64,000 bases of DNA from IMG/VR virus record IMGVR_UViG_3300031760_000044, positions 5,220 to 69,219 of that record. One strand, given 5' to 3'. Source of the DNA: a virus (taxonomy: Duplodnaviria > Caudoviricetes). Within the stretch, counting starts at the first letter, position 1. Each line of letters starts with the position of its first letter. Under the pieces are notes generated by a model. The model was not told the origin of the DNA, ran no database searches, and saw nothing but the letters and a program-made list of their open reading frames with translations. The translations under genes and the position numbers were made by a program. Below are positions 7,363 through 62,210 of this stretch, piece after piece.

Positions 7363-10141
7363 TCAATTTAACACATTTTTTGAAAAGCATTTGAGTAATA
7401 CTTCGGGGTTTACCTCATATAAAACCCTTAATAAGATCGCTCTATTCTTATTTAGTTTACTTTTTAACCCAGCCGTCTGCTGTTCAAGTTGTGGTGTCAT
7501 CCTAAATGCCCTATCAAGTAGCCAACTAAATAACCCAACATACTTACTAGGCATTGCGATACGCCTTATATCGTCAACGAGTTGATCAAAGTCTTCCCTT
7601 AACAAGAGGAAGTTATCTGAATTATTCTCGCTATCTTCTTTTTCTATTCTGCTATCTAGCAATTCCAGTTGATACTTCTGTATAAGATTTTCAACATTGC
7701 GCGACATCTTCTTTGTCATATCTAATGGATACTTCTGGAAAAAGTCTACCGTTGGCACAGTCTCAGTTGTGGGCTTGTAGGATTCAAACTCCATTTTGTA
7801 TAGCCGACACATAGGAGAGTCGAGCTTAAAATTTATTCTGTTTGTTGGGAAGCCCTTTCTAATCTGTTGCCAAAACGGAGGATACTTCGTTTCCTTTATA
7901 TTCATATCATCGCGTATGCGCTTTATTTCATTTGTAATGTCTATAGAGAACGTACGTTTGCTACTATCTATAGCCGCCTGAGCAAGCACCGCCAGTATGC
8001 AAGCATAGTCTTTGAACTTTTGATCTTTAAAATTATATGTATAGGTTAGGCACACCTGAGCAAGATTACTTGACTCCCCGATATTCCTTTGGCTCGCACT
8101 TAAGGCATTATCCATGGCTGCAAAAGATGCGGGGTCTGAATCGTATTTCTTTTTACTCTTAGGTATATTGTTTACTATTGTCGGATAAACCTTATAGCAA
8201 TACTTGGCATGTTCGACAATTGCGGGAGCGTTAGTTGTGTATATTGAATCTGCATTTTGTTACCGTATCAGCTCTTTATCCGATACTTCTTATAGTTTCC
8301 TATAAGTTCTGACTATCTCTTAACCTCCAACTTTACTTGCTGAGGTTCCTCGCGCTCGTGGGATTGCGTCCTAGTCGATACACCTTTCCTTATGGACTTG
8401 GCTCGGATGTTAGCCTGACATTTCTGTTTTAGCGTTCACCGAATTCACGAGGTATTTTTTACGCACATTTCTGTACGCTGACCCATTCTCTTAAGTCTTG
8501 ATCGCTACCGTTGTTCCTATCGCAGAAACTTGTTCCTTGTAGGTTGACGGCTATACACAACTTGCCTAATCTAAAATACTTTTTAATCAGTGGATGTAAA
8601 TGGTTATGCAGATATCCCAAATTGTTTTGCGAATTAAAAGGATTTCTAAACTCTGCCAGATATTCTCCGTCCTCAAATCTCTCCGAGTAACATTGAATTG
8701 CATCTTCCTCCCCATCAAAAGTGCAATCTTTGCCCACATCTTCTCCGACAGAGTGCAAGAGCATTGCATATGGACTTCCGCATATTACCAGATTATCAGC
8801 ATTCTGAAGAAGCTTACCAGTTTTTACGCTTGTAGTATAATCATATATAATCTTCTTTTTGCGTTCTCTGAAATACTCACTCTGTTCAAAGCTATGATCT
8901 TGAGTCCATATCGCCAGCAATGCTTCGTAGTCATTTGAAAAGTTGGCATTCCTTTTTAGAAAGTCAAGGAATGTATTTGTGTCCGTCTTTAATGCTTTCA
9001 CATAATCTCTGGTTGGAGCGGCCACCTCTTCCACAAAATCGTTGTTAAGTGCATTTACCATTTGATAAGACATTCTTTGGTAATCACCAAACTTACTGGG
9101 ATGTGCCGTCTTGACTACGCCAAACATCGATCCATTCTCGCGCACCTTCTCACACCACTTCTCGTAAGGATAATCATATTTAATCCACTTACAAGCATTA
9201 TTAGTGGTAATCACCTTTACATTCTTGGCCAAGTGTTTATTGCCCCACATATCCGTCAGATAAGCTGTATCATATTTCTGACCAAAATAATCTTTGAGAA
9301 AGCCTTGGATATCCGTAGCAAATGCCGCCGCCTTTGTAAAGTGATGACGGAGAAGCACATATCCATTAGTCCATTCAGGACATATAGACAAATCTATCAA
9401 TGCTTGTCCGTCAAACATGTCGCAGCCCAGCGTGTAGTCTTGGCGGTACACCGCCTTACATTGATTATTCTCAACCTCTACACTTACCACATTGGTCTTG
9501 AACTCCGACCTTACATCATTAAGTATTACAATATCTTCGGGGTTGATCTCTATCTTGCCCACAATGGTTGAAGTTACCAATGATGTATACGCCCCAAACT
9601 CCGTAATTGGTGCATCGTGCTTTGGAAGTTTGAGGCCCATGTAGAGGAAGTCATGAGCCTTTTTATATAAGCTTTGCTTTATGAACATACACGAACCAAC
9701 CTTAGCCTTACCAGCCGTGCGGTATAGGTATTTGTATTTCACATCGCCGTTCTTATAATGGATCGTAACTCCCTCTTGATAATACTTGAGGCGAATCTCG
9801 TCCGCACTCTTGCAGTCAAACTTATCTTTATTGGCCTCGCACTCAGCTTTGAGTGCCTTGAGATATTCATTGTTGGGATCCTCGGCCAACGCCACATCAA
9901 TGCGCGCCATTTCGTTATCAAATGTGCGGCTGCCGTAATTGAAGTTTAAGCATATCACATCACGGGTATACTTTTCATTCTTTGTGGTCAGCCCATTGGC
10001 TTTAAGAAAGTCAAGGAATAATGAATTGGTGAGCATTGCTGGCTTAGTATCGTACTTCTTTCTTACGCCGCAGTCAACTTCATAAATTGATCCTGCCTCG
10101 TAATTGTTGATCTTATAGCCGTAATTGCCCAACGGCATCAC
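7363..10141 (-). CDS. YonO-like single-subunit (RdRP-fold) DNA-dependent RNA polymerase; exons 10141-8494 and 8252-7363, 845 aa spliced
   Basis: Joining the exons gives ...RNNGSDQD-S-DSIYTTN..., restoring a DxDxD catalytic triad. Upstream motifs MFDGQ and LAEFRNPF are consistent with the double-psi barrel RNAP family of SPbeta YonO. Exon 2 is in frame with ORF 7363..8115. Confidence 0.85.
8253..8493 (-). ncRNA. Group I intron (IA-like, 241 nt, no internal ORF)
   Basis: The 5' exon ends in U (GACU) and pairs with GGUC in the intron (U.G wobble P1). The intron ends in G. Conserved elements P (GAAUUCGGUGAA), Q (AUCCGAGCC), R (GUAUCGACUAG) and S (AAGAGAUAGUC) are present, with P7 GACUA/UAGUC. 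Removal restores the reading frame. Confidence 0.9.
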
Positions 10142-14145: not shown

Positions 14146-14152
14146 TTCACAG

Positions 14153-14221
14153 CGGATCATAGCTCAACGGTAGAGCGCGGTGCTTAGCACCGAGATGAGG
14201 GTTCAAATCCCTCTGATCTAT
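14153..14221 (+). ncRNA. tRNA-like RNA with a 5-nt anticodon loop (2 nt short)
   Basis: (C)GGATCA TA GCTC-AACGGTA-GAGC G CGGTG-CTTAG-CACCG AGAT GAGGG-TTCAAAT-CCCTC TGATCTA: perfect D and T arms, truncated anticodon loop. Confidence 0.7.
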
Positions 14222-16930
14222 TTCGTAGCAATAGTGCTACAACCTGACCAATATTGGTCGATTATCCATAGGAGGATAAAGTTATGAAGCGTATTGACGT
14301 TCTTGAGAGTATTGAGTACACTCTCAACACCATCGATGATGATGTTCATGTCAGAAGAAGCAACGAGGGTCAGGGTGCCAGACGTGCCTTGATTAACTGC
14401 AAGAAGTATCTGTTGATGTCCGACGATGATGATGAGTTGGTTGCTATGCTCAAAGGGGCAATTGTTGAGTGTAATCGTGATATTGTCAGATGCAAGGGCA
14501 AAGGTTTAATGGAGTATCTGAATGCTAAGAGGGGAGCTTATGTGGATACCCTTTTTAATGTCCTTAGACCTGAACCTGAACCTGAGCCGAGAAAAGATGA
14601 ACCGCAGTGGTATATGTTTGATGGTCGCAAGAAACTTTGGGCTGTTCCAGAGTCAGACAAAATCAGGATAGAGCTTGCTGGAAGGCTTGAAACTGATAAA
14701 GGTGTGTATGTGCATTTACATTTCATACCTTGGAACTAAGTATTATTTCCCTGATGCAATCCGTGAGTAAGCACGGCAACGGTTGATACAATCTGAACCG
14801 TGCTGAAAGCGGCAAGGGTAGTAACTATAAACACTCATATTTAAAGGAGGCATTTATGAAGGACGTTGTTTTTGATGTTGTACTTGAGAACGGTCATGTT
14901 TATCATGGTAAGCTGGTTGACTACAACCAGCACTGGAACGTATGGCTTACTGGCCAGATGGATGAGAGCTATAAGCTTCTCGAGAGCGGAACTGTACTCG
15001 ACGAGGACGACTACTATCAGCTCTGGTGTGGTCAGGATACCCTTGGCTTCTGGCATTACGGTGCCAGACAGCTTGAGGACAACATTGAACATGCAGCTGG
15101 GTACATGTGGTCAAGTAGGGCATCAATAATGAACAAGTATCTCCCGAGCCACATTGCCGACATAGTGGTCAACCAGATGGCTACAGCAGTATCTCTTGAG
15201 GATCTGAAGAGGATCCTTAAGGCAGCAGCAGTGGTACAGCCTGACCTTGCCATCGATGTTGAGCAGTGGCACGGCGAAACAAATTATCATATCGTGTCTC
15301 TTCTCAATGAAGAGCATGATGTGCATGAAGTATTAAAGGAGGACGAAGTATGAGAAAGGGAATTGTGATTATGGTAATTGTAATGGTAATGGGGTTTGTC
15401 CAGAAGGCAAACGCCGTTACCCAGTCACATCAGGAGATTAGTGGCGATAGCGTTAGAGCTATCGTCACTGACGTTGAAGGTGACGTAGTAGCCGTCGAGA
15501 TTTTCGACGGCAAGGGAATCGAGATCTACTCTTTCTATGGTGACAACTTCACCATAGGAGAAGAGATTACATTAATCATGGTCGATGACAAAATCGTCGG
15601 CGTAAAAAATTAATTGCGCAAAGCAGAAAGGAAAACAAAACTATGGAACAGATGGTACAGATTCAGAAGGATGCTGTCAAGGCGGTAAGAGATTTTATTT
15701 CTTACCAGAACTACAAGGATGGTGAGATGTACAAGTACTTCTCACCGATTACTGAGGAGATCATCAAGGTCTCCGAGACCGAGGAGTGCATCAATGCAAT
15801 CATGAAGCTCACCCTTGATTACAAGGGGAGCAATATTTTGAAGGATCTCAGATCTGTTTGTAACAGATTTGGAATCGATGGAGGTGAGGCTATTATGAAT
15901 GGTCTCCGCAGAGTTCTTAAAGAAAAGGAAATTACCTTCTGCGAGGAAACAGAAAGTAATGTTCTAGTGGCTATTGACTACGACAACGGTATAATCATCA
16001 CTCAGTACAGTAGTGATGTGTTACCTAGTAGCTTTGAACTATATGATACATCGTACAAGTTAATAGCCACCCAAGATTGTGCCAAGGATTCTAATCCTTG
16101 GCCCTTCGGGGGTTGGAACTCATGGGGAGCAATAGCGTAAGAAAGGAGAAAGAGAAATGAAAATTGCAATGTATCTTAATAGGATCGTGATGGCAATAGC
16201 TATCACACTGGGGCTGTTCTTCGGAATGGCCCTTGACTCAGAGGGTTGGTGGGCACCAAGAGGACTTGCCTGCAGTCTCTGCGTAATAATGATTACGGCA
16301 GTAATTAATGTGTATCTTAAGGAGGTAACAGAATGAAGGCTCGCAATGTAAAAGAAACCTATATGGAGAATCTTAAGGAGAAGATCCGTATCAAAGTAAG
16401 CGACACCGAGATCATGGTTGATGTATATGATTATATCGATTATGATAATGAAGCCGAGTTTCATCAGGAAAAGGAAACCGTAAGCTTCTTCGATGAGGGT
16501 GAAATTAGTGAAAAGATCACCGAAGAGGTCGAAGAGGCCGCGAGGGATCTTATGTTAGACTTCGAAACGAATGTTCCCGAAGAGAATATTCAGACCAAGG
16601 TAAATCAGATAGTGGAAACTATTGTATGCTTGTTCGAGAATAATATGACTAACAAGCTGAGTAACTACCTTGGTTGCTTGGCAATGGAAAGAGAATCATT
16701 ATATGACTAAAAGAAAGGAGAATAAATATGTATCTGTATCGTGTATATCGTGTTAGCTTTGGAAGGTCAATTTGTGTCGGAGAGTTCAAGACAAGAAAGG
16801 AGGCAGAATACGAACTTATCCGACTCAGAAAGATTGATACTGTGTCGTACTACACTATGTAAGCACTATGGTTGTGCTATCGACCATTAAACGGGCAAGT
16901 AACTATTAACCCAAAACGGAGGTAAACAAA

Positions 16931-24631: not shown

Positions 24632-24660
24632 TTGACAAAATTAAATATCGATGTTACTAT
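24632..24660 (+). promoter_or_regulatory. Sigma-A-type promoter
   Basis: TTGACA-N17-TACTAT. Confidence 0.7.
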
Positions 24661-51923: not shown

Positions 51924-52128
51924 TCAGGGTAAGTAGTGGGCTGTCCACCAGTATTTCTCCGTGTAAAAATTGCACCAGACGAAAAGCTGGGTGTCATTGT
52001 AAATGTGGGAAGTACAAAGGATATGTCCAAGATAATAAACAAGTTAGTGATAAAGTAAATGTACGCAAGCAAGTTGAACATGCATTAACATCAATAATAT
52101 TCACTAAAAAATAAAGTTATATTACCGC

Positions 52129-52157
52129 TTGACATTGTAGTACGGATATGATATTAT
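52129..52157 (+). promoter_or_regulatory. Sigma-A promoter at the start of the RNA island
   Basis: TTGACA-N17-TATTAT with TG extension. Confidence 0.75.
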
Positions 52158-52260
52158 ACTATTGAACTTGATTTTATCATAGTTAACTTTTTCCTTTTCC
52201 ATTAAAGAAAGAACGTGAAACGCACCGTCGTTACCCTTTATGGTTGTCCTTTCTTTATCT

Positions 52261-52333
52261 GCCCCTTTAGTTCAGTCGGTAGAACACGCGGCTGTTAACC
52301 GCGATGTCCTAGGTTCGAGTCCTAGAGGGGGCG
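52261..52333 (+). tRNA. tRNA-Asn (GTT)
   Basis: Canonical cloverleaf GCCCCTT/AGGGGGC, CGCGG-CTGTTAA-CCGCG, CTAGG-TTCGAGT-CCTAG; no encoded CCA. Confidence 0.92.
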
Positions 52334-52593
52334 CGGAAGTGAAGATTAAATAATGCAACAAACCGTAGGGTTATAGGTCTCTTCCATCTAACGGTTGATT
52401 GACTGATTACTGGTTCTAATGTGGCGACGGCCATGCATTAGCCAGCATAAGATAGGGTGACTATAAAAGATAGTTGCTCTACTTTATACCAAAGAGAGCG
52501 ATTACTCTCTGCGGTATACGCCGTCATGGCTCAATTGGATTCAATTGAGCTGGACGGTGATAACAGATAAATTTTTTATAAGAAGGAATTTTT

Positions 52594-53262
52594 ATGAAAT
52601 GTTTGGTTTGCAATAAAGAATTAATAAAAGAACAAACAAAATATTGTTGTAAACAACATGAAATTGAACACAAAAAGAATATAAAAATACAACAATGGTT
52701 AAATGGAAAAGATGCTGGATATTCTGGGACGGGAATTAAACCTTTTATAAGAAATTATTTATTGGATAAGGTTGGCTATAAATGTGAATTATGTGGATGG
52801 GGAAAAATTAATCCATATAGTCAAACATATCCCTTAGAAATACATCATAAGGATGGTAATTATCAAAATAATAAATTAACTAATTTACAAGTTCTTTGTC
52901 CTAATTGTCATAGTTTAACTGATACATATAAAAATATGAATAATAAGAGTGTTCGAGATAGAGGTAAATATACTGGAAGAAAGAAAACGATAAACACATG
53001 TATAGATTGTGGAGTTGGTATTTCAAGTAGATCAATAAGGTGCAGATTTTGTGAGTCAAAAAGAAAAAGTAAATTAATATCGAAACTAAAAATTACTAGA
53101 GAAGAATTAAAACAGCTTATAAGAACAGAACCATTTTTACAAATTGGCAAAATGTTTAATGTGTCGGATAATGCTATTCGTAAATGGTGCGATAGATATA
53201 ATTTGCCAAGAAAGAAATCGATTATTAATTCTTATTCTGATGAAGAATGGAATCTAATATAA
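52594..53262 (+). mobile_element. Free-standing HNH homing endonuclease with C-terminal HTH
   Basis: CELCG, LEIHHKDGN...NLQVLCPNCHS, second CxxC zinc site, VSDNAIRKW HTH; much more AT-rich than its flanks. Confidence 0.85.
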
Positions 53263-53268
53263 ATAATT

Positions 53269-53339
53269 GCCGTCATCGTCTAATGGTAAGACTTGACACT
53301 TGTAATGTCAGTATCTACGTTCAAATCGTAGTGGCGACT
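53269..53339 (+). tRNA. tRNA-Thr (TGT)
   Basis: GCCGTCA/TGGCGAC (one mismatch), GTCT-AATGGTA-AGAC, TGACA-CTTGTAA-TGTCA, CTACG-TTCAAAT-CGTAG. Confidence 0.8.
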
Positions 53340-53435
53340 AGCCCGTTTAAGAGTGTGCGGATGATAAACTCTTCCCTCGTAGTCAGGTGGCAGAATAGAC
53401 TATACGCTAGAGCGGCGGGTCAATAATGAAAAATA

Positions 53436-53463
53436 TTGACAGAATGCTCCTAGGCAATATAGT
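53436..53463 (+). promoter_or_regulatory. Sigma-A-type promoter inside the RNA island
   Basis: TTGACA-N16-TATAGT. Confidence 0.55.
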
Positions 53464-53475
53464 AATATCCTAGTG

Positions 53476-53540
53476 TTGTACGTAAACGGACTCATAAGGC
53501 TTATAGGCACTGAGGGCGCTTCGACTACGCCACGTACAAT
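53476..53540 (+). ncRNA. Small tRNA-like RNA without a D arm
   Basis: TTGTACGT/ACGTACAA 8-bp terminal stem, CTCA/TGAG inner stem, GGCG-C-TTCGACT-A-CGCC T-arm. Confidence 0.45.
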
Positions 53541-53845
53541 TTCTACCGCAGTAATACTTGAATTGACAAGTTATGTCGGGACGGCAGGGTCGAACGTAGC
53601 GGTGAGGTTTCTTCTCGTCTGTACCAACAAGATTAATAAAACAGACATAAGTTCAACCTAAGAACAGAAAATAGGCGTACGGAGAGCTTGTAGAGCATTG
53701 CGCAACCTCACTCCGCCCACGATAATGGCAATTAAAGATGTCTGCGAAATGTGTGTTATGAGAGAGATCGAGAAGTACAACGTGAACTTCTAACCTCGCA
53801 TGGCGTAGTTATGGTTCTACGTACCATGTGGTTAAAAACCAATAA

Positions 53846-53956
53846 GCCCAAACAATGTCGCTACTACACTTGTAAGGTGATAACTTAATGTGATGCGAAA
53901 CTGGGAAGGCGTTGGTCTCATCAACCAGCGTGTGGGTTCGAATCCTACTTTGGGCG
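53846..53956 (+). tRNA. tRNA-Met/Ile2 (CAT)-like RNA with a D-arm region enlarged by about 35-40 nt
   Basis: GCCCAAA/TTTGGGC acceptor, TTGGT-CTCATCA-ACCAG anticodon arm, GTGGG-TTCGAAT-CCTAC T arm; 59 nt between acceptor and anticodon stem. Confidence 0.6.
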
Positions 53957-54129
53957 TGTTCCTAATCCGAGATCCTAGGAATGGCAATGCTGAAATGCTA
54001 TGTCTACTCGGCGGGCGCAAGCTAATCCGCGAACGAAAGCTGGTCATACCCCTTGATTGGAGCAGCGTGTCTAAAAATTCAGTGTTCACAGCTGGAATCA
54101 CTTTGAATTTTGTAAAGCACATGGGGTGT

Positions 54130-54235
54130 TGGTGAGTCGTACAATGGTAGTACAACGCAAGAGGCTTTTTCTGTTGCCTTACAAACGACAAAGATATTTT
54201 TCGAGTAAATGCTGGTTCGATTCCAGCCTCACCAA
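54130..54235 (+). ncRNA. tRNA-like RNA with an expanded, non-canonical anticodon domain
   Basis: TGGTGAG/CTCACCA acceptor, GTAC-AATGGTA-GTAC D arm, GCTGG-TTCGATT-CCAGC T arm; 57 nt in place of the anticodon and variable arms. Confidence 0.7.
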
Positions 54236-54493
54236 TTACCGCAAAGTGGATGATGTGGTATAAATAAGACGGACAAGGCTTTGGCATATGACTTGTTTTA
54301 TAGAGTGGAAGGATAACATTCGTTACACCACAATATAAGATAAGAACAAGATGGTGGGATGCGAGTGGTCTTATTATAGGTGCCGTTTGTTAGACATAAC
54401 GGTTAAATGTCCAGTTAGTGTATTCAAGACAGAATCTGTGGGGATCCCGCTAATGAGAGAAAATCTTGATAAGCAGGAAACAGCCTATCTTTA

Positions 54494-54608
54494 TGTGTCG
54501 TGGCGGAAAGGGTAAACGCTATAATTATATAGTGATGATAACCTTGGCTATATAATGCTATATAGAAGTAAAGGTCTTTATGTAAGGTTCGAATCCTTAC
54601 CGACACAT
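54494..54608 (+). ncRNA. tRNA-like RNA (Leu-type D arm, 6-bp T stem) with a putative pseudoknot in place of the anticodon arm
   Basis: TGTGTCG/CGACACA, GCG-GAAAGGGTAAA-CGC, GTAAGG-TTCGAAT-CCTTAC; crossing stems ATTATATAG/CTATATAAT and ACCTT/AAGGT. Confidence 0.7.
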
Positions 54609-54749
54609 GAGGTCGGGTCATACCCGAATGATCTGAGAGTAAGCAGAACGCCTCAGAGAGAATGACAATGCCGAGAAAGGTTGGTCTCATAGCCGTGGAC
54701 GAGACAATGTAATGAAGGTGGGTTATTCTTTCCTTATCGGAACTGCCCA

Positions 54750-54834
54750 GCTGACGTGATGAAATTGGTAGCACATAGAAGACTTAAAATCTTCTGGAGG
54801 AAACTCCGTGCGGGTTCAAGTCCCGCCGTCAGCA
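54750..54834 (+). tRNA. tRNA-Leu (TAA)
   Basis: GCTGACG/CGTCAGC-A, GAAGA-CTTAAAA-TCTTC, long variable arm GGAG-GAAA-CTCC, GCGGG-TTCAAGT-CCCGC. Confidence 0.92.
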
Positions 54835-54863
54835 TTTGATATATTAAATGAAATAGGAGATAA

Positions 54864-55472
54864 TTGACGATGATCACATTATACATTGGTAAATCTGGGG
54901 CTGGCAAGGATACATTTTTAAAAAAGCAAGTAGCATTAGGTGTTAATCCTATTATTTCTTATACCACACGTCCTATGCGTGAAGGTGAAGTAGATGGAGT
55001 TGATTATAATTTTGTTTCTTCAGCAAGCTTTCTTGAAATGCTTGATCACGAACAATTAGCTGAGTGGAGAAAATATGATACACTAATTAACAATTCACCA
55101 GAAACATGGTACTATGGATCTCCATGGTTAGACAAGAGTAAGGATTATGTAGGAGTTGTTACTCCAGAAGGTGCCAAGAATTATATTAAACTATATGGTG
55201 CAGAAAATATCGAAGTAGTTTATGTCGTAGCAGATGATGACATTAGAGAAGAGAGAGCCAGAATGCGAGAATCACTCAGTATTGAAGAGTGGAATATCAC
55301 AGTTAAGCCTGAGTGGGACAGACGACTTGAGGCAGACTCAAAAGATTTTTCTGATGAAGCTATTCAAGATTTAGCTAACGCTCTTGGTCATAAGATTATC
55401 GTAATGTTTAACAATAGTTATCCTGACAAAGTAACATTTTCATGGATCTACCCTCTTGACAAAACGACATAA
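54864..55472 (+). CDS. gmk: Guanylate kinase
   Basis: P-loop GKSGAGKD and SYTTRPMREGEVDGVDYNFVS signature (ATG at 54870). Confidence 0.85.
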   Translation: MTMITLYIGKSGAGKDTFLKKQVALGVNPIISYTTRPMREGEVDGVDYNFVSSASFLEMLDHEQLAEWRKYDTLINNSPETWYYGSPWLDKSKDYVGVVTPEGAKNYIKLYGAENIEVVYVVADDDIREERARMRESLSIEEWNITVKPEWDRRLEADSKDFSDEAIQDLANALGHKIIVMFNNSYPDKVTFSWIYPLDKTT

Positions 55473-55484
55473 ATATGTTAATGT
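55456..55484 (+). promoter_or_regulatory. Sigma-A-type promoter; predicted start about 55491, immediately before the pistol ribozyme
   Basis: TTGACA-N17-TAATGT with TG extension. Confidence 0.6.
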
Positions 55485-55491
55485 ATTATTA

Positions 55492-55573
55492 GGTCGTTCG
55501 GGCGACCATAAATAGACTTCTAAGCCCGAAGCGTTTACGATTTTGCTGACCTCAGGAAAATCGTAAGGCAAGT
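55492..55573 (+). ncRNA. Pistol self-cleaving ribozyme
   Basis: P1 GGTCG/CGACC with loop TTCGGG pairing to CCCGAA (pseudoknot), linker ATAAATAG, P2 ACTT/AAGT, CTAAGCCCGAAGCG core, P3 TTACGATTTT/AAAATCGTAA, then GG^C. Collinear with the env25 pistol as I recall it (CGUGG UUAGGG CCACG UUAAAUAG UUGC UUAAGCCCUAAGCG...GG^U GCAA). Confidence 0.88.
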
Positions 55574-55725
55574 ACGGTGGAACGAGAGTCGCGAATCTCG
55601 GTGGTTTAGTGGTTTGGGTTTGCCACTATTCGTCCTAAAGGCAGCACATCATACAGAGATAAAAACCTATGTGTTGTCGGCGACAGTGTGAAGGCTTGAA
55701 AACGTCAACGGCTGTCGCAAAATAT

Positions 55726-55796
55726 GGGGATATAGTGTAACAGTAGCAAGCATGACTTTGACTCATGAGGTTCAGGGGCAGCACCTGATATCCCTG
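55726..55796 (+). tRNA. tRNA-Gln (TTG) with non-canonical D and T loops
   Basis: GGGGATA/TATCCCT, CATGA-CTTTGAC-TCATG, TCAGG-GGCAGCA-CCTGA. Confidence 0.75.
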
Positions 55797-55962
55797 CTTT
55801 CAACTAACAACTAATTGGTAACGGAGTTGCAAATCCTAGCCAAAGACGTTAGCCTTGGAGAAAGGTCTGTAAAGCGGGTCAGATAGTCAGAACCTGAAAA
55901 TCATGCATGCAGAAGACCAAGATAAGTGGCTTGGGTGGAAATGACAAAAGTTAGTTGAATTT

Positions 55963-56076
55963 TCTCGGTGGCGGAATATGTAGACGCGAAAAGTTATCTA
56001 AAGATTGTTACACACGGAGTGATAACACATTACGGCTATTGAACAATCATGTAAGGTGCGAATCCTTACCCGAGAT
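55963..56076 (+). ncRNA. tRNA-like RNA paralogous to 54494, with a putative pseudoknot in place of the anticodon arm
   Basis: TCTCGG/CCGAGA, GCG-GAATATGTAGA-CGC, GTAAGG-TGCGAAT-CCTTAC; crossing stems GTTATC/GATAAC and GATTGTT/AACAATC. Confidence 0.7.
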
Positions 56077-56177
56077 ATTGACCGAAATGGGCGAGAGAAG
56101 AGTAAGTCGTGTAAGTCACGTATCTTCGAAACAGAGATAGGAACAAAGATGAATTCGCCTCCTACAGTAGGTCATAT

Positions 56178-56261
56178 GGGAATATAGCTTAGTGGCAAAG
56201 CAGCGGTGCGCACCCTAAGAACAACGAGAGCAAGACTCAGGTTCGATTCCTGATGTTCCCT
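56178..56261 (+). ncRNA. tRNA-like RNA with a remodelled (branched) anticodon arm
   Basis: GGGAATA/TGTTCCC, GCTT-AGTGGCA-AAGC, TCAGG-TTCGATT-CCTGA; no 5-bp stem with 7-nt loop at the anticodon position. Confidence 0.7.
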
Positions 56262-56431
56262 TAACCGCACGGATGGCCGTGAGCGCAAACCGACGGGTTA
56301 AAGTTACGAGCACACAAGCGCCGTAGATAACTTTAGGTGCGGTATATAAATGAATATGGGCCTCAAGCAGAAAGTGGTACGCTCCTCATGAGTAAGCAAA
56401 CTTTAATCAGGATTAAAAGGAGGAATTAATT

Positions 56432-58194
56432 ATGGCATCAGCAAGTAAGCATAAGCAGAGAAGTTCAAGAGCGCATCAGCAGCGTCCTAACTTTGAGAGA
56501 TATTTCTACAACAATGCACATAAGCTTTACGTTAAAAAGATGTTCCAGCGTATGATGGAGTCTAATGCTGAAGAAGCAGAGGATAAAGATGAAAACGTAT
56601 AAGGCAATCTTTGATCTACCAGATGATATAATCCCACCCCCAGTGGTGGGATTTCAAATAGTCATTCCGACTAATCAACCCCAACCAACCCCAAACGTAC
56701 AAACTTATACCGCTCCTTTATTGCCAATAACCTATTACAACATAGAAGATGGCACATATACGGAAGTAATTGAGAAAGGAGAAAATGAATAATGGGATAT
56801 CAATGTTTTCACTGCTGCACTAATTCTGTTAGCTGGGATAGTGATTTTGATTTTGAAGATATGGGATATGAAGGCGAAGGTATAGTTCATATTTGCCACT
56901 GCTCTAATTGTGGGGCAGAAATTGAGTATCGTATTCCTCTTGGAGATCCAGAGGAGGACGAAGATGAAAAGAGCATTTGATTATATACTTATAATATTTA
57001 TATTGGTTGCTTTTGTTTATTTCTTATCACATGCTCTGGGTTCTTATTACGGTGAGACAATAGGTAGTACTCCACAATGGATGCTTGATCTTATACACGG
57101 AGGTCATATATGACTAGAGAAGATGCAATGATCATAATAAGAGCATGTAGTGGTAGTGCTTTTAAAGACAAAGACTTTCCATTTAAAACCGTAGAAATTC
57201 TTGAGGCCGTAGAAATAATGAATGATACCATTGATCAGCTTAAGAAAGCACGTAAAGCCGCACGTAGATATAAGCGTATGTATTTAAGACTTAAGACAGA
57301 AATGGGCGCAGCCCAGTGTAAAGATAGTGAAAAAATAGTGAAAGAATAATTACCATTTTAAAAAGGAGAAGAACATGAGAAAAGATTATAATCCTACACC
57401 CGTTTACAACAGAAAGTATGCACGTGGAGTTATCCGTGCTCAGGTTATCAAGCGTAACGGCTATCACAATGTAAGTGCGAATATGAGTCAGACATTCAAA
57501 GAGATGCGTGATAGATGGAATAAGCTTATGGAGGATTTCAAAAGTGAGGATTAATTTTACTACAATAAATGAGGCTGGAGAGAAAAGAGATTGGAGCATG
57601 ACTCCTAATGAACTTCAGGAGGCATATTGGAGTGAGGATGGTAGCCTTCCTGATTTAGACGAAAAGATTGTGTCGTGTGAAGTTGAAGATATTAATTTTA
57701 ATTGTTTTGAAGATCTTGTAACGGAATTAGTGGGGGCAATTGATTGATGAAACATAAGATTACATTTTCTACTGATGATAAAGTAACTTCTATTCATGAT
57801 ATTAAAGTTTCTTTTTATGATCAGGATAATAGAGCTTATTCTATATGTATTCCCACTGAAAAGAAAAATATTATTTCCATAGAAGATATTGTTAATGAAA
57901 GACTGGCTGAATTAAACCATCAGAATAATGGTTAAAAAGGTATAATTCGCCATCAAAATAATGGTGAGGTGAGTTATGAGTTTAGATAAAGCAATTGAGC
58001 ATGGCAAAGAACATCGTGAACAATACCGTGGATCCAAGGCTATCGACTGTACGTGCCGTAATAATGGATCGTGTGAATGGTGTAAGCAGAATCGTACCAT
58101 TCATGATACCCGCGATAGAGAAAGATGTAAAGATGCTATGCTTGACATAACCACAGAAAAAGAGTATACTAAATATCACAAGGTAATGAAATAA
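56432..58194 (+). other. Cluster of small hypothetical ORFs
   Basis: About ten packed ORFs of 55-80 aa with RBS, several with Cys pairs. Confidence 0.6.
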
Positions 58195-59063: not shown

Positions 59064-62000
59064 TTGACAATGAAAGAATATTATAATTATCATAAACATT
59101 CTCATATATCTAATATATTCACCATAGATTCTACCACACGTAATGGTCAGTATGCAGAGCGAGCAATAGAACTCGGGCATACTAATCTTTCCACATGTGA
59201 GCATGGAACATTTGGTGATATTTTTGAGTGTCGTACTTTGGCGGATACTTATAACCTTAAATGTTTGCCAGTTGCGGAGTTCTATATTGTTAAAGATGCG
59301 AGACCTGAATTAAAAGATAGGCGCAATTACCATATTATAGTGACCCCTAAGACTAATGAGGTGCGCAAGAAATGTAATTATATTTCATCTATGGCAAATA
59401 TAGAAGGATATTATTATAAACCTAGGATAGATGTAGCACATTTGCTTACCCTCGATCCCGATGATGTTTATATTACCACGGCATGTGTGGCTGGTATACT
59501 TCGAGATGAAGAAGGAATCAATGATATTTTTCTCCCATTATTTAACCATTTTAAGGATAATATTCTCCTAGAAGTTCAAAATCATATTGATCCGAAACAA
59601 ATCGAGATTAATAAAAGAGTTCTAGATTTTCAAAAAGAATATGGTCTTAAGATAATCGCAGCGAACGATTCTCATTATATAGATGATGAAGGAAGAATAC
59701 AGCGCGATGAATTATTACGCGGAAAGGGAATGAAATACGATGAAGAATCTGGATTTATACTTGATTATCCCAATTATGATATCATGTTTGGCCGTTTTGA
59801 ACAACAAGGAATTCTTTCAGAATCTCAAATAGAAGAAGCTATTGATAACACTATGATTCTCGCAGGAGTAGAAGAGATAGCTCTTGATCATTCTATTAAG
59901 ATGCCTACAATAGATCCTGATCTTACTCCTGCGGAACGTGTTGCTAAACTTAAAAAAATAGTTAACCATAGATTTTCACAAATAGTTAAGGATGAACATA
60001 TCGAAGGAGAAGAATTTAATAAGTATAGAGATGGTATCCGTTATGAAATGGATATTATTGAAAAAACCAATGATGAGATACATACTGCGGATTATTTTCT
60101 TCTCAATACTAAACTTGTTGATCTTGCTGTGAATAAGTATGGTGGAGTTCTTACTCGAGGTGGAAGAGGATCATGTGCATCATTCTATATAAATAAAATC
60201 TGTGGAATGACACAGCTAGATAGATTCAAGATTAATCTTCCTATATTCCCTGATAGATTCGCATCTACGGCTCGTTTACTTGAAAATAGAGCACTACCAG
60301 ATATCGACTACAATGTCGAAACGCAAGAACCATTTGTTAAGGCAGCAAGAGAATTACTCGGAGAACATAGTTGTTACCCTATGTATAAGACTGGAAACTT
60401 TCAGCTTAAAGAGGCATTCAAAAATTTATGTCGGAGTAGAGGTATAAATTTTGAAATAAGTAACCAAATAAGTGCTGATATAGATAAATACAGAGAGGAT
60501 CCTGAGTGGAAAGATTTAATCAACGAAGCTGAAAAATATGTAGGAGTTATTTATTCTGCAAGTGTTCATGCTTGCGCTCACCTTCTTAGTAATGAAGACA
60601 TACGTTATGAGTATGGCGTATTAAGATTTGGTGATGTGTTATGTGTTCTTATAACCTCAGCTGAAGCCGATGAATATAAAGTACTCAAAGATGACTTTCT
60701 TATTGTAACTGTTTGGCATCTTATTGCTGAAACATTTAAAGCAATTGGAAAGCCTATTATATCCGCACATGATTTATTGGTCGAGATAAAAGATGATGAT
60801 AGAATATGGAATTTATTAGCGGATGGTATGACTTGTACTCTTAACCAGATTGATTCTTCTAATGGTACGCACCAAGCAAAGAGATATGGAATTAAGTCTT
60901 TTGAAGAAGGCGCGTTATTGGCGGCTGCTATTCGTCCTTCGTTTGATTCATGGCGTGAGAAATTTTTAAATCATGAGGCTTATACCACTGGATCTGATCA
61001 ACTTGATGCTGTACTTAATTCCACTGGGGGATATATATTATTCCAAGAAAATCTCATGGAATATTTCCAGTGGCTTGGTGTTACCCCCGCTGAATCCATT
61101 GGTTTGATTAAAAAAATTAGTAAAAAGAAAATTAAACCTCAGGATTTTGCCAAACTTGAAAAAAGAATTAGAAAAGTATGGATAGAAAAGACTGGGTCAG
61201 AAGACATGTTTGATGAAACTTGGGGTATGATTCAGAGTTGCATGAGTTATGGCTTCTGTAGTGCGCATGCGGCTGCAACATCTCTCGACATGTGTTATGG
61301 TGCGTATCTTAAAGTCCATTACCCTCTTGAATATTATACTGTGTGTTTTAATACTTATTCAGACGATGCTGATAAAACAGCACGATTAACCCAAGAATTA
61401 GATTATTTTAATATTAAAATACAGAATATAAAATTTAGATATTCGAGAGGAGAGTATTCCTTTGATCGAAATACCAATAACATTTATAAGGGGATGGCAT
61501 CATTACCTTATCTTTCTGGTAAGGTGGCAGAAGAACTTTATGCACTTAAGGATAATCAGTATTCTGATTTTATCGAAGTTCTTTGCGATATAAAGAATAA
61601 CACATCTGCCGATTCACGCCAGATAGATATACTTATTAAGTTAGATTTCTTTTCAGAGTTTGGCGGTATTAATGATCTGCTTGATATTAAAAATAAATGG
61701 GAAAAATATTCTAGCAGAAAAACTGTCAAAAAGGATAGCGATATACTCAATATGCTTGGCGTAGATAATGTTCGCACACATTCTGAAAAAGAGACAGACA
61801 AACAATTCTCTGGTGTAGATATGATAGCGGCACTCAAGGTGTGGATCAATAATAGAGAGTTAATTCCTACTAGTTTATTTGACAAGATGGATTATGAGTC
61901 TGAATATCTTGGGTATATATCATCTATGAATCCTAATATTAAAGCTGATTATTGGTATGTGGTAGATGTTGGCGAGTATAATAGGGTTAATCTGTATCAG

Positions 62001-62210
62001 ATATGCGATGGCAAGACACAGAATATTAAAATCGACAAGAACTATACTGTCAATAAGGGCGATGTAATTCATATTCTTGAGTACACAGACAAGCCTAGAT
62101 GGCGTAAGGTCGGAGAGGATCCTGACACACATAAGCCCAAGTTTGAAAAGACTGGCGAGACTGAACGTGTGGTCAGTAAAATTGCTCCAGTAAATCGTCA
62201 CAAGACTTGA
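59064..62210 (+). CDS. dnaE: DNA polymerase III alpha subunit (DnaE type with PHP domain)
   Basis: HKHSH PHP motif, AANDSHY, RGGRGS, LPDIDY, SVHACAHLL, YILFQE, YGFCSAHA...YLKVHYP; ATG at 59070. Confidence 0.92.
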   Translation: MTMKEYYNYHKHSHISNIFTIDSTTRNGQYAERAIELGHTNLSTCEHGTFGDIFECRTLADTYNLKCLPVAEFYIVKDARPELKDRRNYHIIVTPKTNEVRKKCNYISSMANIEGYYYKPRIDVAHLLTLDPDDVYITTACVAGILRDEEGINDIFLPLFNHFKDNILLEVQNHIDPKQIEINKRVLDFQKEYGLKIIAANDSHYIDDEGRIQRDELLRGKGMKYDEESGFILDYPNYDIMFGRFEQQGILSESQIEEAIDNTMILAGVEEIALDHSIKMPTIDPDLTPAERVAKLKKIVNHRFSQIVKDEHIEGEEFNKYRDGIRYEMDIIEKTNDEIHTADYFLLNTKLVDLAVNKYGGVLTRGGRGSCASFYINKICGMTQLDRFKINLPIFPDRFASTARLLENRALPDIDYNVETQEPFVKAARELLGEHSCYPMYKTGNFQLKEAFKNLCRSRGINFEISNQISADIDKYREDPEWKDLINEAEKYVGVIYSASVHACAHLLSNEDIRYEYGVLRFGDVLCVLITSAEADEYKVLKDDFLIVTVWHLIAETFKAIGKPIISAHDLLVEIKDDDRIWNLLADGMTCTLNQIDSSNGTHQAKRYGIKSFEEGALLAAAIRPSFDSWREKFLNHEAYTTGSDQLDAVLNSTGGYILFQENLMEYFQWLGVTPAESIGLIKKISKKKIKPQDFAKLEKRIRKVWIEKTGSEDMFDETWGMIQSCMSYGFCSAHAAATSLDMCYGAYLKVHYPLEYYTVCFNTYSDDADKTARLTQELDYFNIKIQNIKFRYSRGEYSFDRNTNNIYKGMASLPYLSGKVAEELYALKDNQYSDFIEVLCDIKNNTSADSRQIDILIKLDFFSEFGGINDLLDIKNKWEKYSSRKTVKKDSDILNMLGVDNVRTHSEKETDKQFSGVDMIAALKVWINNRELIPTSLFDKMDYESEYLGYISSMNPNIKADYWYVVDVGEYNRVNLYQICDGKTQNIKIDKNYTVNKGDVIHILEYTDKPRWRKVGEDPDTHKPKFEKTGETERVVSKIAPVNRHKT

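Follow-up and report, generated by a model that had tools for sequence, protein, structure and literature searches.

A predicted pistol self-cleaving ribozyme, located at positions 55492–55573 (+ strand) of a 64,000-nucleotide (nt) stretch of virus DNA, rather likely acts as a built-in maker of the 5' end of a phage noncoding RNA (ncRNA), and not as a processor of transfer RNA (tRNA) as such. The stretch, referred to below as the window, comes from a member of the Caudoviricetes (Duplodnaviria; IMG/VR record IMGVR_UViG_3300031760_000044) and comprises bases 5220–69219 of that 69,219-bp record. Within it, the pistol belongs to a cassette of the order ribozyme, ncRNA, tRNA, which is shared by seven loci (the window, L018, L020, L040, L062, L080, and L081). 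This interpretation is carried by what was computed directly: a conserved ribozyme fold, a conserved promoter motif, the fold and covariation of the ncRNA, and the gene order.

The pistol class was discovered bioinformatically in 2015, and its chemistry is well understood; to our knowledge, no natural function has been established for it. If the interpretation is true, it would give the class a concrete natural role that can be tested. In the proposed series of events, a sigma-A-type promoter within a tRNA cluster would start a transcript at the pistol or 1 nt before it, and the ribozyme would fold during synthesis and cut between G55568 and C55569. A fragment carrying a 5'-triphosphate and a 2',3'-cyclic phosphate (78 nt, given a start at A55491) would be released, and C55569 would be left with a 5'-OH. 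The cut would set the 5' end of the ncRNA (55569–55725) whichever promoter or read-through had made the transcript, and cleavage by RNase P before G55726, at the tRNA-like gene, would set its 3' end. The RNase P step is proposed because the neighbor on the 3' side of the ncRNA is invariantly tRNA-like.

Identity, fold, and cleavage site of the pistol

The assignment of 55492–55573 to the pistol class draws on the Rfam family RF02679, on base pairing, and on compensatory changes in relatives. The RF02679 (Pistol) model matches 55492–55565 on the + strand with 36.9 bits (gathering score, 34.5). The expectation (E) value of this match is 0.0039 when all families are searched over the 64-kb window, 6.6e-5 when all families are searched over 1.1 kb, and 9.8e-7 in a single-family search of the 69-kb record. 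Helix P1 is formed by GGUCG (55492–96) and CGACC (55503–07), with five of five positions paired. The P1 loop, UUCGGG (55497–502), forms a pseudoknot with CCCGAA (55525–30) in which all six pairs are present; because the covariance model leaves the pseudoknot unscored, this pairing is independent support for the assignment. The linker AUAAAUAG follows at 55508–15 and includes the equivalents of the AAA linker (A55510–12). Helix P2 joins ACUU (55516–19) to AAGU (55570–73) with four of four pairs, and P3 spans 55534–55567 as a stem of 11 pairs (55534–44/55557–67) with a 3-bp tip, a hairpin that RNAfold also recovers. The core, AAG...GCG, corresponds to 55522–24 and 55531–33, where A55523 is the equivalent of purine-32, G55524 of G33, G55531 of G40, C55532 of C41, and G55533 of G42. 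Linker and core residues fall on upper-case consensus positions of the Rfam alignment, and structural and mutational work has placed purine-32, G33, G40, C41, and G42 at the active site (PMC6154101).

The element thus agrees with the pistol class in its Rfam score, P1, pseudoknot, P2 and P3, junction length, and core residues; the scissile step is GC here rather than GU, which is not a defining feature of the class. By sequence criteria it is a genuine pistol ribozyme, for which self-cleavage is predicted. The identity given in the original prediction, which had been drawn from the letters without database searches, is therefore borne out by a model search above the cut-off and by all helices, the pseudoknot, and the core residues being in place.

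The junction between P3 and P2 consists of exactly 2 nt, G55568 and C55569, and this G^C (55568–55569, + strand) is the predicted scissile step, placed by the pairing of P3 and P2 and by relatives that have a short P3. The short P3 of L080 reads GUUAC-AUUA-GUAAC and is followed by GC and AAGU; that of L062 reads UUUGGA-UAA-UCCAAG and is followed by GA and UAGU; the junction is 2 nt in each. These two relatives fix the register, and the register proposed earlier (P3 at 55534–55567, a cut between G55568 and C55569, and P2 at 55516–19/55570–73) is correct. The register implied by the Rfam alignment, which ends at 55565 and sets A55560–U55561 on the GU, was rejected: it leaves P2 mismatched and conflicts with the short-P3 relatives, and the shift is an artefact of a long P3 fitted to a short-P3 model. 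A choice of register by energy was also discarded, as it favored over-long "P3" segments. The rule used called for full pairing of P2 at a fixed offset, a contiguous P3 of ≥4 pairs, and a 2-nt junction. The registers of L021, L051, and L075 are ambiguous, and multi-hairpin P3 inserts are possible there.

The junction's length is strictly conserved in the class, while the identity of GU has been described as only "modestly conserved" (PMC4604425). In the 28 distinct viral pistols whose register is unambiguous, the scissile step is GU in 10, GG in 2, and AU in 3; G^C occurs in L013, L029, L080, and the window group, and G^A in L014/L064, L059, and L062. Steps of doubtful register are AC in L005 and AA in the second copy of L049. 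The G^C step had been presented originally as a departure from the usual G^U, a contrast that fades with at least three further lineages carrying G^C (L013, L029, L080) and others carrying G^A (L062, L014, L059). Because several pistol lineages have G^C or G^A and the literature calls GU modestly conserved, the G^C found here is, as judged from these comparisons, ordinary variation in the class and no argument against activity.

Pairing is maintained across viral pistols. A loose core pattern matched 78 viral contigs, and P1 and the pseudoknot were both paired in 78 of 82 pattern instances (this record included), with many different sequences. In 58 distinct viral cores, taken with no pairing filter, 94.8% of the cells of P1 and 94.5% of those of the pseudoknot are paired; controls in which the P1 or pseudoknot partner was slid are paired at 17–59%. 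All seven pistols of the cassette score above the Rfam cut-off (36.9–63.6 bits). Three versions of the pistol occur in the clade, and they differ by compensatory changes in P1 (GGUCG/CGACC, AGUCG/CGACU, ACUCG/CGAGU), the pseudoknot (UUCGGG/CCCGAA, GCUGGG/CCCAGC, UCUGGG/CCCAGA), and P2 (ACUU/AAGU, GCUU/AAGU, GCUA/UAGU); their P3 stems are unrelated. Since the relatives carry compensatory changes, the pistol fold is judged to be under continuing selection. The P3 tips of the window (55545–55556, GCTGACCTCAGG) and of L018 (702–713, CCTGAGGTCAGC) are exact reverse complements, a difference that amounts, on comparison of the two, to a DNA inversion of the hairpin tip with the stem preserved.

The structured RNA and the tRNA-like gene behind it

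Between the predicted cut site and the next tRNA, each of the seven loci carries a conserved RNA of ~146–162 nt. In all of these pistol-bearing loci the ncRNA reaches from the cut site to a point 6–18 nt 5' of the tRNA; in the window it is a conserved structured ncRNA of ~157 nt at 55569–55725 (+ strand), delimited by RNAalifold, by covariation, and by a covariance model termed R1. RNAalifold finds 41 pairs, arranged as a three-way junction with two hairpins and then two more hairpins. Across six distinct sequences, 93.8% of the cells of this fold pair, and both sides have changed in 22 of the 41 pairs. None of 500 shuffles reaches the observed level, and slid controls pair at 32–60%. The single-stranded 5' tail, roughly 10 nt long, has the invariant sequence CGGUGGAAC; further invariant blocks are CUAUUCGUCCUAAA, after the three-way junction, and CAACGGCU, in the last hairpin. 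The invariance of these single-stranded blocks (CGGUGGAAC, CUAUUCGUCCUAAA, CAACGGCU) suggests tertiary or intermolecular contacts. The earlier claim of a structured RNA at 55569–55725 with a tRNA-like gene downstream is thus matched by conservation in relatives, and cleavage would give the RNA a defined 5'-OH.

No Rfam family matched the ncRNA in scans of 55300–56400 at E values up to 10 and of 52000–56500 at E values up to 1. Loose likenesses to a T-box GGUGGNAC box and to a T-loop-like UGGAA were considered and are not claimed here. Model R1 detects one copy of the ncRNA in each cassette locus, at 106–174 bits, and in this clade only; nothing was found with it in the other 70 pistol loci. 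L082, a pattern match in the viral contigs beyond the seven loci, was rejected by R1. A scan of metagenomes gave 45 pattern matches, 4 of which are real by R1, with L111 as the sole new one. Representative prokaryotic genomes gave 26 pattern matches, none of them real by R1, and hence no clue to a prophage or host.

The ncRNA homologue in L111 (613–769, − strand; metagenome contig WARQ01031395.1) scores 106 bits. No recognizable pistol and no other Rfam ribozyme was found upstream of it, and a short tRNA-like element with an acceptor stem and a GGUGG-UUCGACU-CCACC T arm lies behind it. Because this copy occurs without a recognizable pistol, the ncRNA is taken, on comparison of the loci, to be an independent unit whose usual but not obligatory 5' neighbor is the pistol.

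The gene that follows the ncRNA in the window (55726–55796, + strand) is an atypical tRNA-Gln(UUG)-like gene and the presumed RNase P site. It scores 43.5 bits with the Rfam tRNA model (cut-off 29); ARAGORN made no call for 55726–55796. Its T-loop reads GGCAGCA, its D-loop lacks GG, and one D-stem pair is non-standard. The same atypical tRNA-Gln(UUG) recurs in L020 at 1524–1594, and a tRNA-Met(CAU) fills the slot after the ncRNA in L018, L040, L062, L080, and L081. The T-loop motif GGCAGNA is found in the window at 55726–55796, in L020 at 1524–1594, in L062 at ~7105–7090 (−), and in L111 at ~848–833 (−); in L062 it belongs to a hairpin upstream of the pistol, and in L111 to a hairpin upstream of the ncRNA. 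This recurrence suggests that the clade has its own family of odd tRNA-like RNAs.

Promoter, host, and surrounding DNA

Directly 5' of the pistol, at 55456–55484 on the + strand, the window carries a sigma-A-type promoter, recognized by its sequence and conserved spacing: a −35 element TTGACA (55456–61), a 17-nt spacer with TATG (TRTG/extended −10, 55474–77), and a −10 element TAATGT (55479–84). From the end of the −10 element to P1 the distance is 7 nt, and the motif places the predicted transcription start at about A55491. In six of the seven cassette loci (the window, L018, L020, L040, L080, L081) the promoter is kept, with P1 beginning 6–7 nt downstream of it. The −35 element, the spacing, TATG, and a TAnnnT −10 element are conserved despite two different upstream contexts: two loci have a kinase gene there, and four have tRNA-Leu with a spacer RNA. 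Motif and conservation thus agree with the earlier placement of a promoter immediately before the pistol, with a predicted start at or 1 nt before P1 and a 78-nt product. Among 80 viral pistols, a pistol that abuts a promoter is confined to this clade.

The motif class is common in the window. TTGACA-N16-18-TANNNT occurs 33 times where 3.4 are expected (~tenfold), with 30 occurrences on the + strand; many of these matches begin with TTGACAAAA and have a TG ahead of the −10 element (e.g., at 24632, 26421, 27441, 35616, 47915, 50121, and 52129). By this count the window carries a large family of apparent near-consensus promoters of host type. A consensus promoter scanner missed the pistol promoter, whose −10 element matches TATAAT at three of six positions. 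The L062 promoter (TTGATA, 17 nt, TAATAT) stands ~120 nt 5' of the pistol, with another small RNA between them. The original prediction made the pistol the first element of its transcript; this holds as a predicted trait typical of the clade (six of seven loci) and fails for L062. The constant feature, as far as the loci show, is a predicted pistol immediately 5' of the ncRNA, which is found in seven of eight ncRNA copies, the eighth being that of L111.

CheckV estimates the record at ~55% complete, which corresponds to a whole genome of roughly 125 kb. A DnaE-type polymerase (59064–62210) in the window is ~40% identical to enzymes of Bacillus, Geobacillus, and Clostridioides phages, and because of these relatives the host is probably a Firmicute; with a host of this type, sigma-A promoter rules are a reasonable guide. 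A blastn search of 54800–57000 against deposited phages gave no match. The cassette is placed in an RNA-rich stretch that holds several tRNAs. Outside the cassette, a guanylate-kinase-like open reading frame (ORF) occupies 54864–55472 on the + strand (Pfam Guanylate_kin, E 1.6e-10), and its stop codon (55470–72) falls inside the promoter spacer. This ORF precedes the cassette in the window and in L020; in L018, L040, L080, and L081 a tRNA-Leu(CAA) and an RNA of ~95 nt replace it 5' of the promoter.

Other RNA elements were observed in the same DNA and its relatives. The window holds a group I intron at 8289–8502 on the − strand, with an Rfam score of 69.5 bits against a gathering score of 50. 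ARAGORN reports a "tRNA-Stop (tta)" at 14152–14222 of the window, a call made doubtful by the shortened anticodon loop seen in the Rfam alignment, and another at L111:1053–1138 (−), which has a tRNA-Leu-type body with anticodon UUA and is a possible ochre suppressor. Two segments of the window, 54130–54235 and 56178–56261, score as tRNA (Rfam 43.3 and 46.9 bits, respectively) and have large insertions in the anticodon region; of the two, only the second is called by ARAGORN, as an 84-nt Gly(CCC).

Alternative explanations and known systems

The order of the cassette is also found with unrelated RNAs in other phage lineages. A pistol, followed by 130–250 nt that are too short for a typical gene and then by a tRNA, occurs in three unrelated lineages, within other phage tRNA clusters (L021:11548–11867; L051:12544–12157, −; L075:5783–5372, −). 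The pistol of L021 begins 8 nt after a tRNA-Val, within an array of 23 tRNAs and a transfer-messenger RNA (tmRNA). About four independent lineages underlie the enrichment of pistols beside tRNAs. A broader proposal, which we advance tentatively and with less confidence than the role of the pistol in the window, is that the 157-nt RNA represents a new class of phage RNA with both ends made by ribozymes (the 5' end by the pistol, the 3' end by RNase P), and that, more generally, one natural job of pistols would be to make, in cis, the 5' ends of ncRNAs in phage RNA operons. If true, this would be the first biological function defined for the pistol class, a counterpart to that of the theta ribozymes at the 3' ends of tRNAs.

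Several points weigh against the pistol as a 5'-end maker. The start site, the cleavage, and the mature ends are all predicted. The non-canonical elbow of the tRNA-Gln-like gene might weaken its recognition by RNase P. The L111 homologue means that the ncRNA does not strictly need a pistol, and with the L062 pistol ~120 nt behind its promoter, removal of a triphosphate leader is not the conserved point. Of 80 viral pistols, 24 (~30%) lie immediately 5' of a Shine-Dalgarno (SD) sequence and start codon, and therefore ncRNA processing is at most one use of the class. A ribozyme-made 5'-OH is attacked by RNase J1 in Bacillus (PMC3328962), and by analogy the cut could destabilize the downstream RNA or cause 5' trimming up to the first helix. 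A stabilization of the RNA by its 5'-OH does not follow, since such an end is an RNase J1 substrate in Firmicutes.

An unlikely alternative is that the pistol punctuates a long read-through transcript from within, parting the upstream message (guanylate kinase mRNA here, tRNA-Leu and the spacer RNA in relatives) from the RNA genes, a role that has been proposed for ribozymes located at the boundaries of phage genes, with the adjacent promoter secondary or unused. The + strand showed no terminator-like site from the upstream genes to the pistol, and internal pistols do exist in L062 and, behind tRNA-Val, in L021; within the 200 nt upstream, most viral pistols lack a sigma-70-like promoter, and 24 of the 80, as noted, stand just before an SD and ORF. 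However, the promoter keeps a fixed distance in six loci that differ in their upstream DNA, and its motif class is over-represented and strand-biased. Punctuation of this kind is also compatible with the role favored here, as either way the cut would set the 5' end of the ncRNA. Less probable still is a decay or dosage device like glmS, in which the 5'-OH would recruit RNase J1, which would degrade or limit the downstream ncRNA and tRNA, so that the pistol would tune RNA amount instead of maturation. The B. subtilis enzyme degrades the 5'-OH product of the glmS ribozyme (PMC3328962), the phage is Firmicutes-like by its DnaE, and the single-stranded ~10-nt 5' tail of the ncRNA could load an exonuclease. 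Against this, pistols have no known ligand control, and it is hard to see why a constitutive self-destruct element should stand behind a strong conserved promoter; strong selection acts on the structure of the ncRNA, and the sequence of the 5' tail is invariant, which suggests that the RNA is kept and used.

Two further explanations appear very improbable to us, to about the same degree. In the one put forward in the original prediction, the 5'-OH serves RtcB-type ligation or circularization, or avoids a sensor of 5'-triphosphates. The products of a pistol do carry the end chemistry of RtcB, 5'-OH and 2',3'-cyclic phosphate (PMC8782182), and the L062 phage encodes RtcB (G003:C1:24760–25863; 163.7 bits in a 400-amino-acid open frame, in a genome 98% complete). 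RtcB is nevertheless absent from two cassette-bearing relatives with a completeness of 97% and 100%, and it was rejected as a conserved partner of the cassette, being encoded only by the L062 phage among the relatives. It was also absent from this record, which is 55% complete; the families of RNA ligase and polynucleotide kinase were not searched. A 3' end made by RNase P would be a 3'-OH, which RtcB cannot join. No second ribozyme flanking the ncRNA was found in Rfam scans of the window, the RNA island, and the relatives' loci, and circularization is unlikely because such a ribozyme would be needed to make a cyclic-phosphate 3' end. For the evasion of triphosphate sensing we are aware of no bacterial basis, and of no RIG-I-like sensor for RNA 5'-triphosphates in bacteria. 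In the other explanation, the pistol is an inactive relic that folds without cutting, e.g., owing to its long P3 or to G^C at the scissile step. It exceeds the Rfam cut-off by only 2.4 bits, and cleavage is a prediction; yet the low score is due to the shifted alignment of the long P3, all core residues are in place, G^C or G^A steps occur in several other lineages, the class tolerates variation at this step, and the compensatory changes speak for continuing selection on the fold.

The pistol of the window shares with the published class (RF02679; Harris 2015, PMC4604425; env25 structures, review PMC6154101) the same P1, 6-bp pseudoknot, P2, P3, and 2-nt scissile junction, the same core (AAA linker, purine-32, G33, G40, C41, G42), and the same habitat, phages of Firmicutes-like hosts. 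It differs from typical pistols in its G^C step, a tolerated variant, and in an unusually long P3 (11+3 bp). It differs from the published examples in its setting: it follows a promoter directly, so that the ribozyme makes up the whole 5' leader, it is located in a tRNA cluster, and it is fused to a conserved ncRNA. The pistol papers place the class merely near phage genes and give no function (PMC4604425). Full-text literature searches found no paper linking pistols with phage tRNA clusters or with ncRNA maturation, in agreement with the earlier impression that pistols in phage tRNA operons are undescribed.

Theta ribozymes (Kienbeck 2024, PMC10879173), minimal relatives of the hepatitis delta virus (HDV) ribozyme, are likewise small self-cleaving RNAs in phage tRNA regions that are proposed to make ends instead of protein enzymes; their cleavage site adjoins phage tRNAs, and they have been proposed as an alternative to tRNA 3'-end enzymes. 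Unlike them, the pistol has an unrelated fold, would cut at its own 3' end, and would make the 5' end of an RNA that is not a tRNA; it would work as a mirror image of the theta ribozymes and is not a member of their group. Rfam scans of the window and the RNA island (E values up to 1) gave no HDV-like match, a weak negative because the theta subfamily may be outside Rfam. The glmS ribozyme of Bacillus, with RNase J1 (Collins 2007, via PMC3328962), is likewise a ribozyme in a 5' leader that leaves a 5'-OH in a Firmicutes cell; it is controlled by a ligand and leads to decay of an mRNA, whereas the pistol here has no known ligand and is followed by a conserved structured ncRNA.

In the window, promoter, pistol, a covarying orphan RNA that begins at the predicted cut site, and tRNA form a series without gaps, which makes the proposed role of the pistol easy to read and testable. 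The 3' end of the ncRNA MALAT1 is made by RNase P at the mascRNA, and arrays of the type ribozyme-guide-ribozyme and tRNA-guide have been engineered. These systems, like the one proposed here, excise an RNA that lies between a cis-acting ribozyme and a tRNA-like RNase P site. They are eukaryotic or synthetic, whereas the cassette of the window would be a natural version from a bacterial virus, with its RNase P step inferred. The cassette thus adds a new structured phage RNA and a putative natural counterpart of the engineered ribozyme/tRNA excision cassettes.

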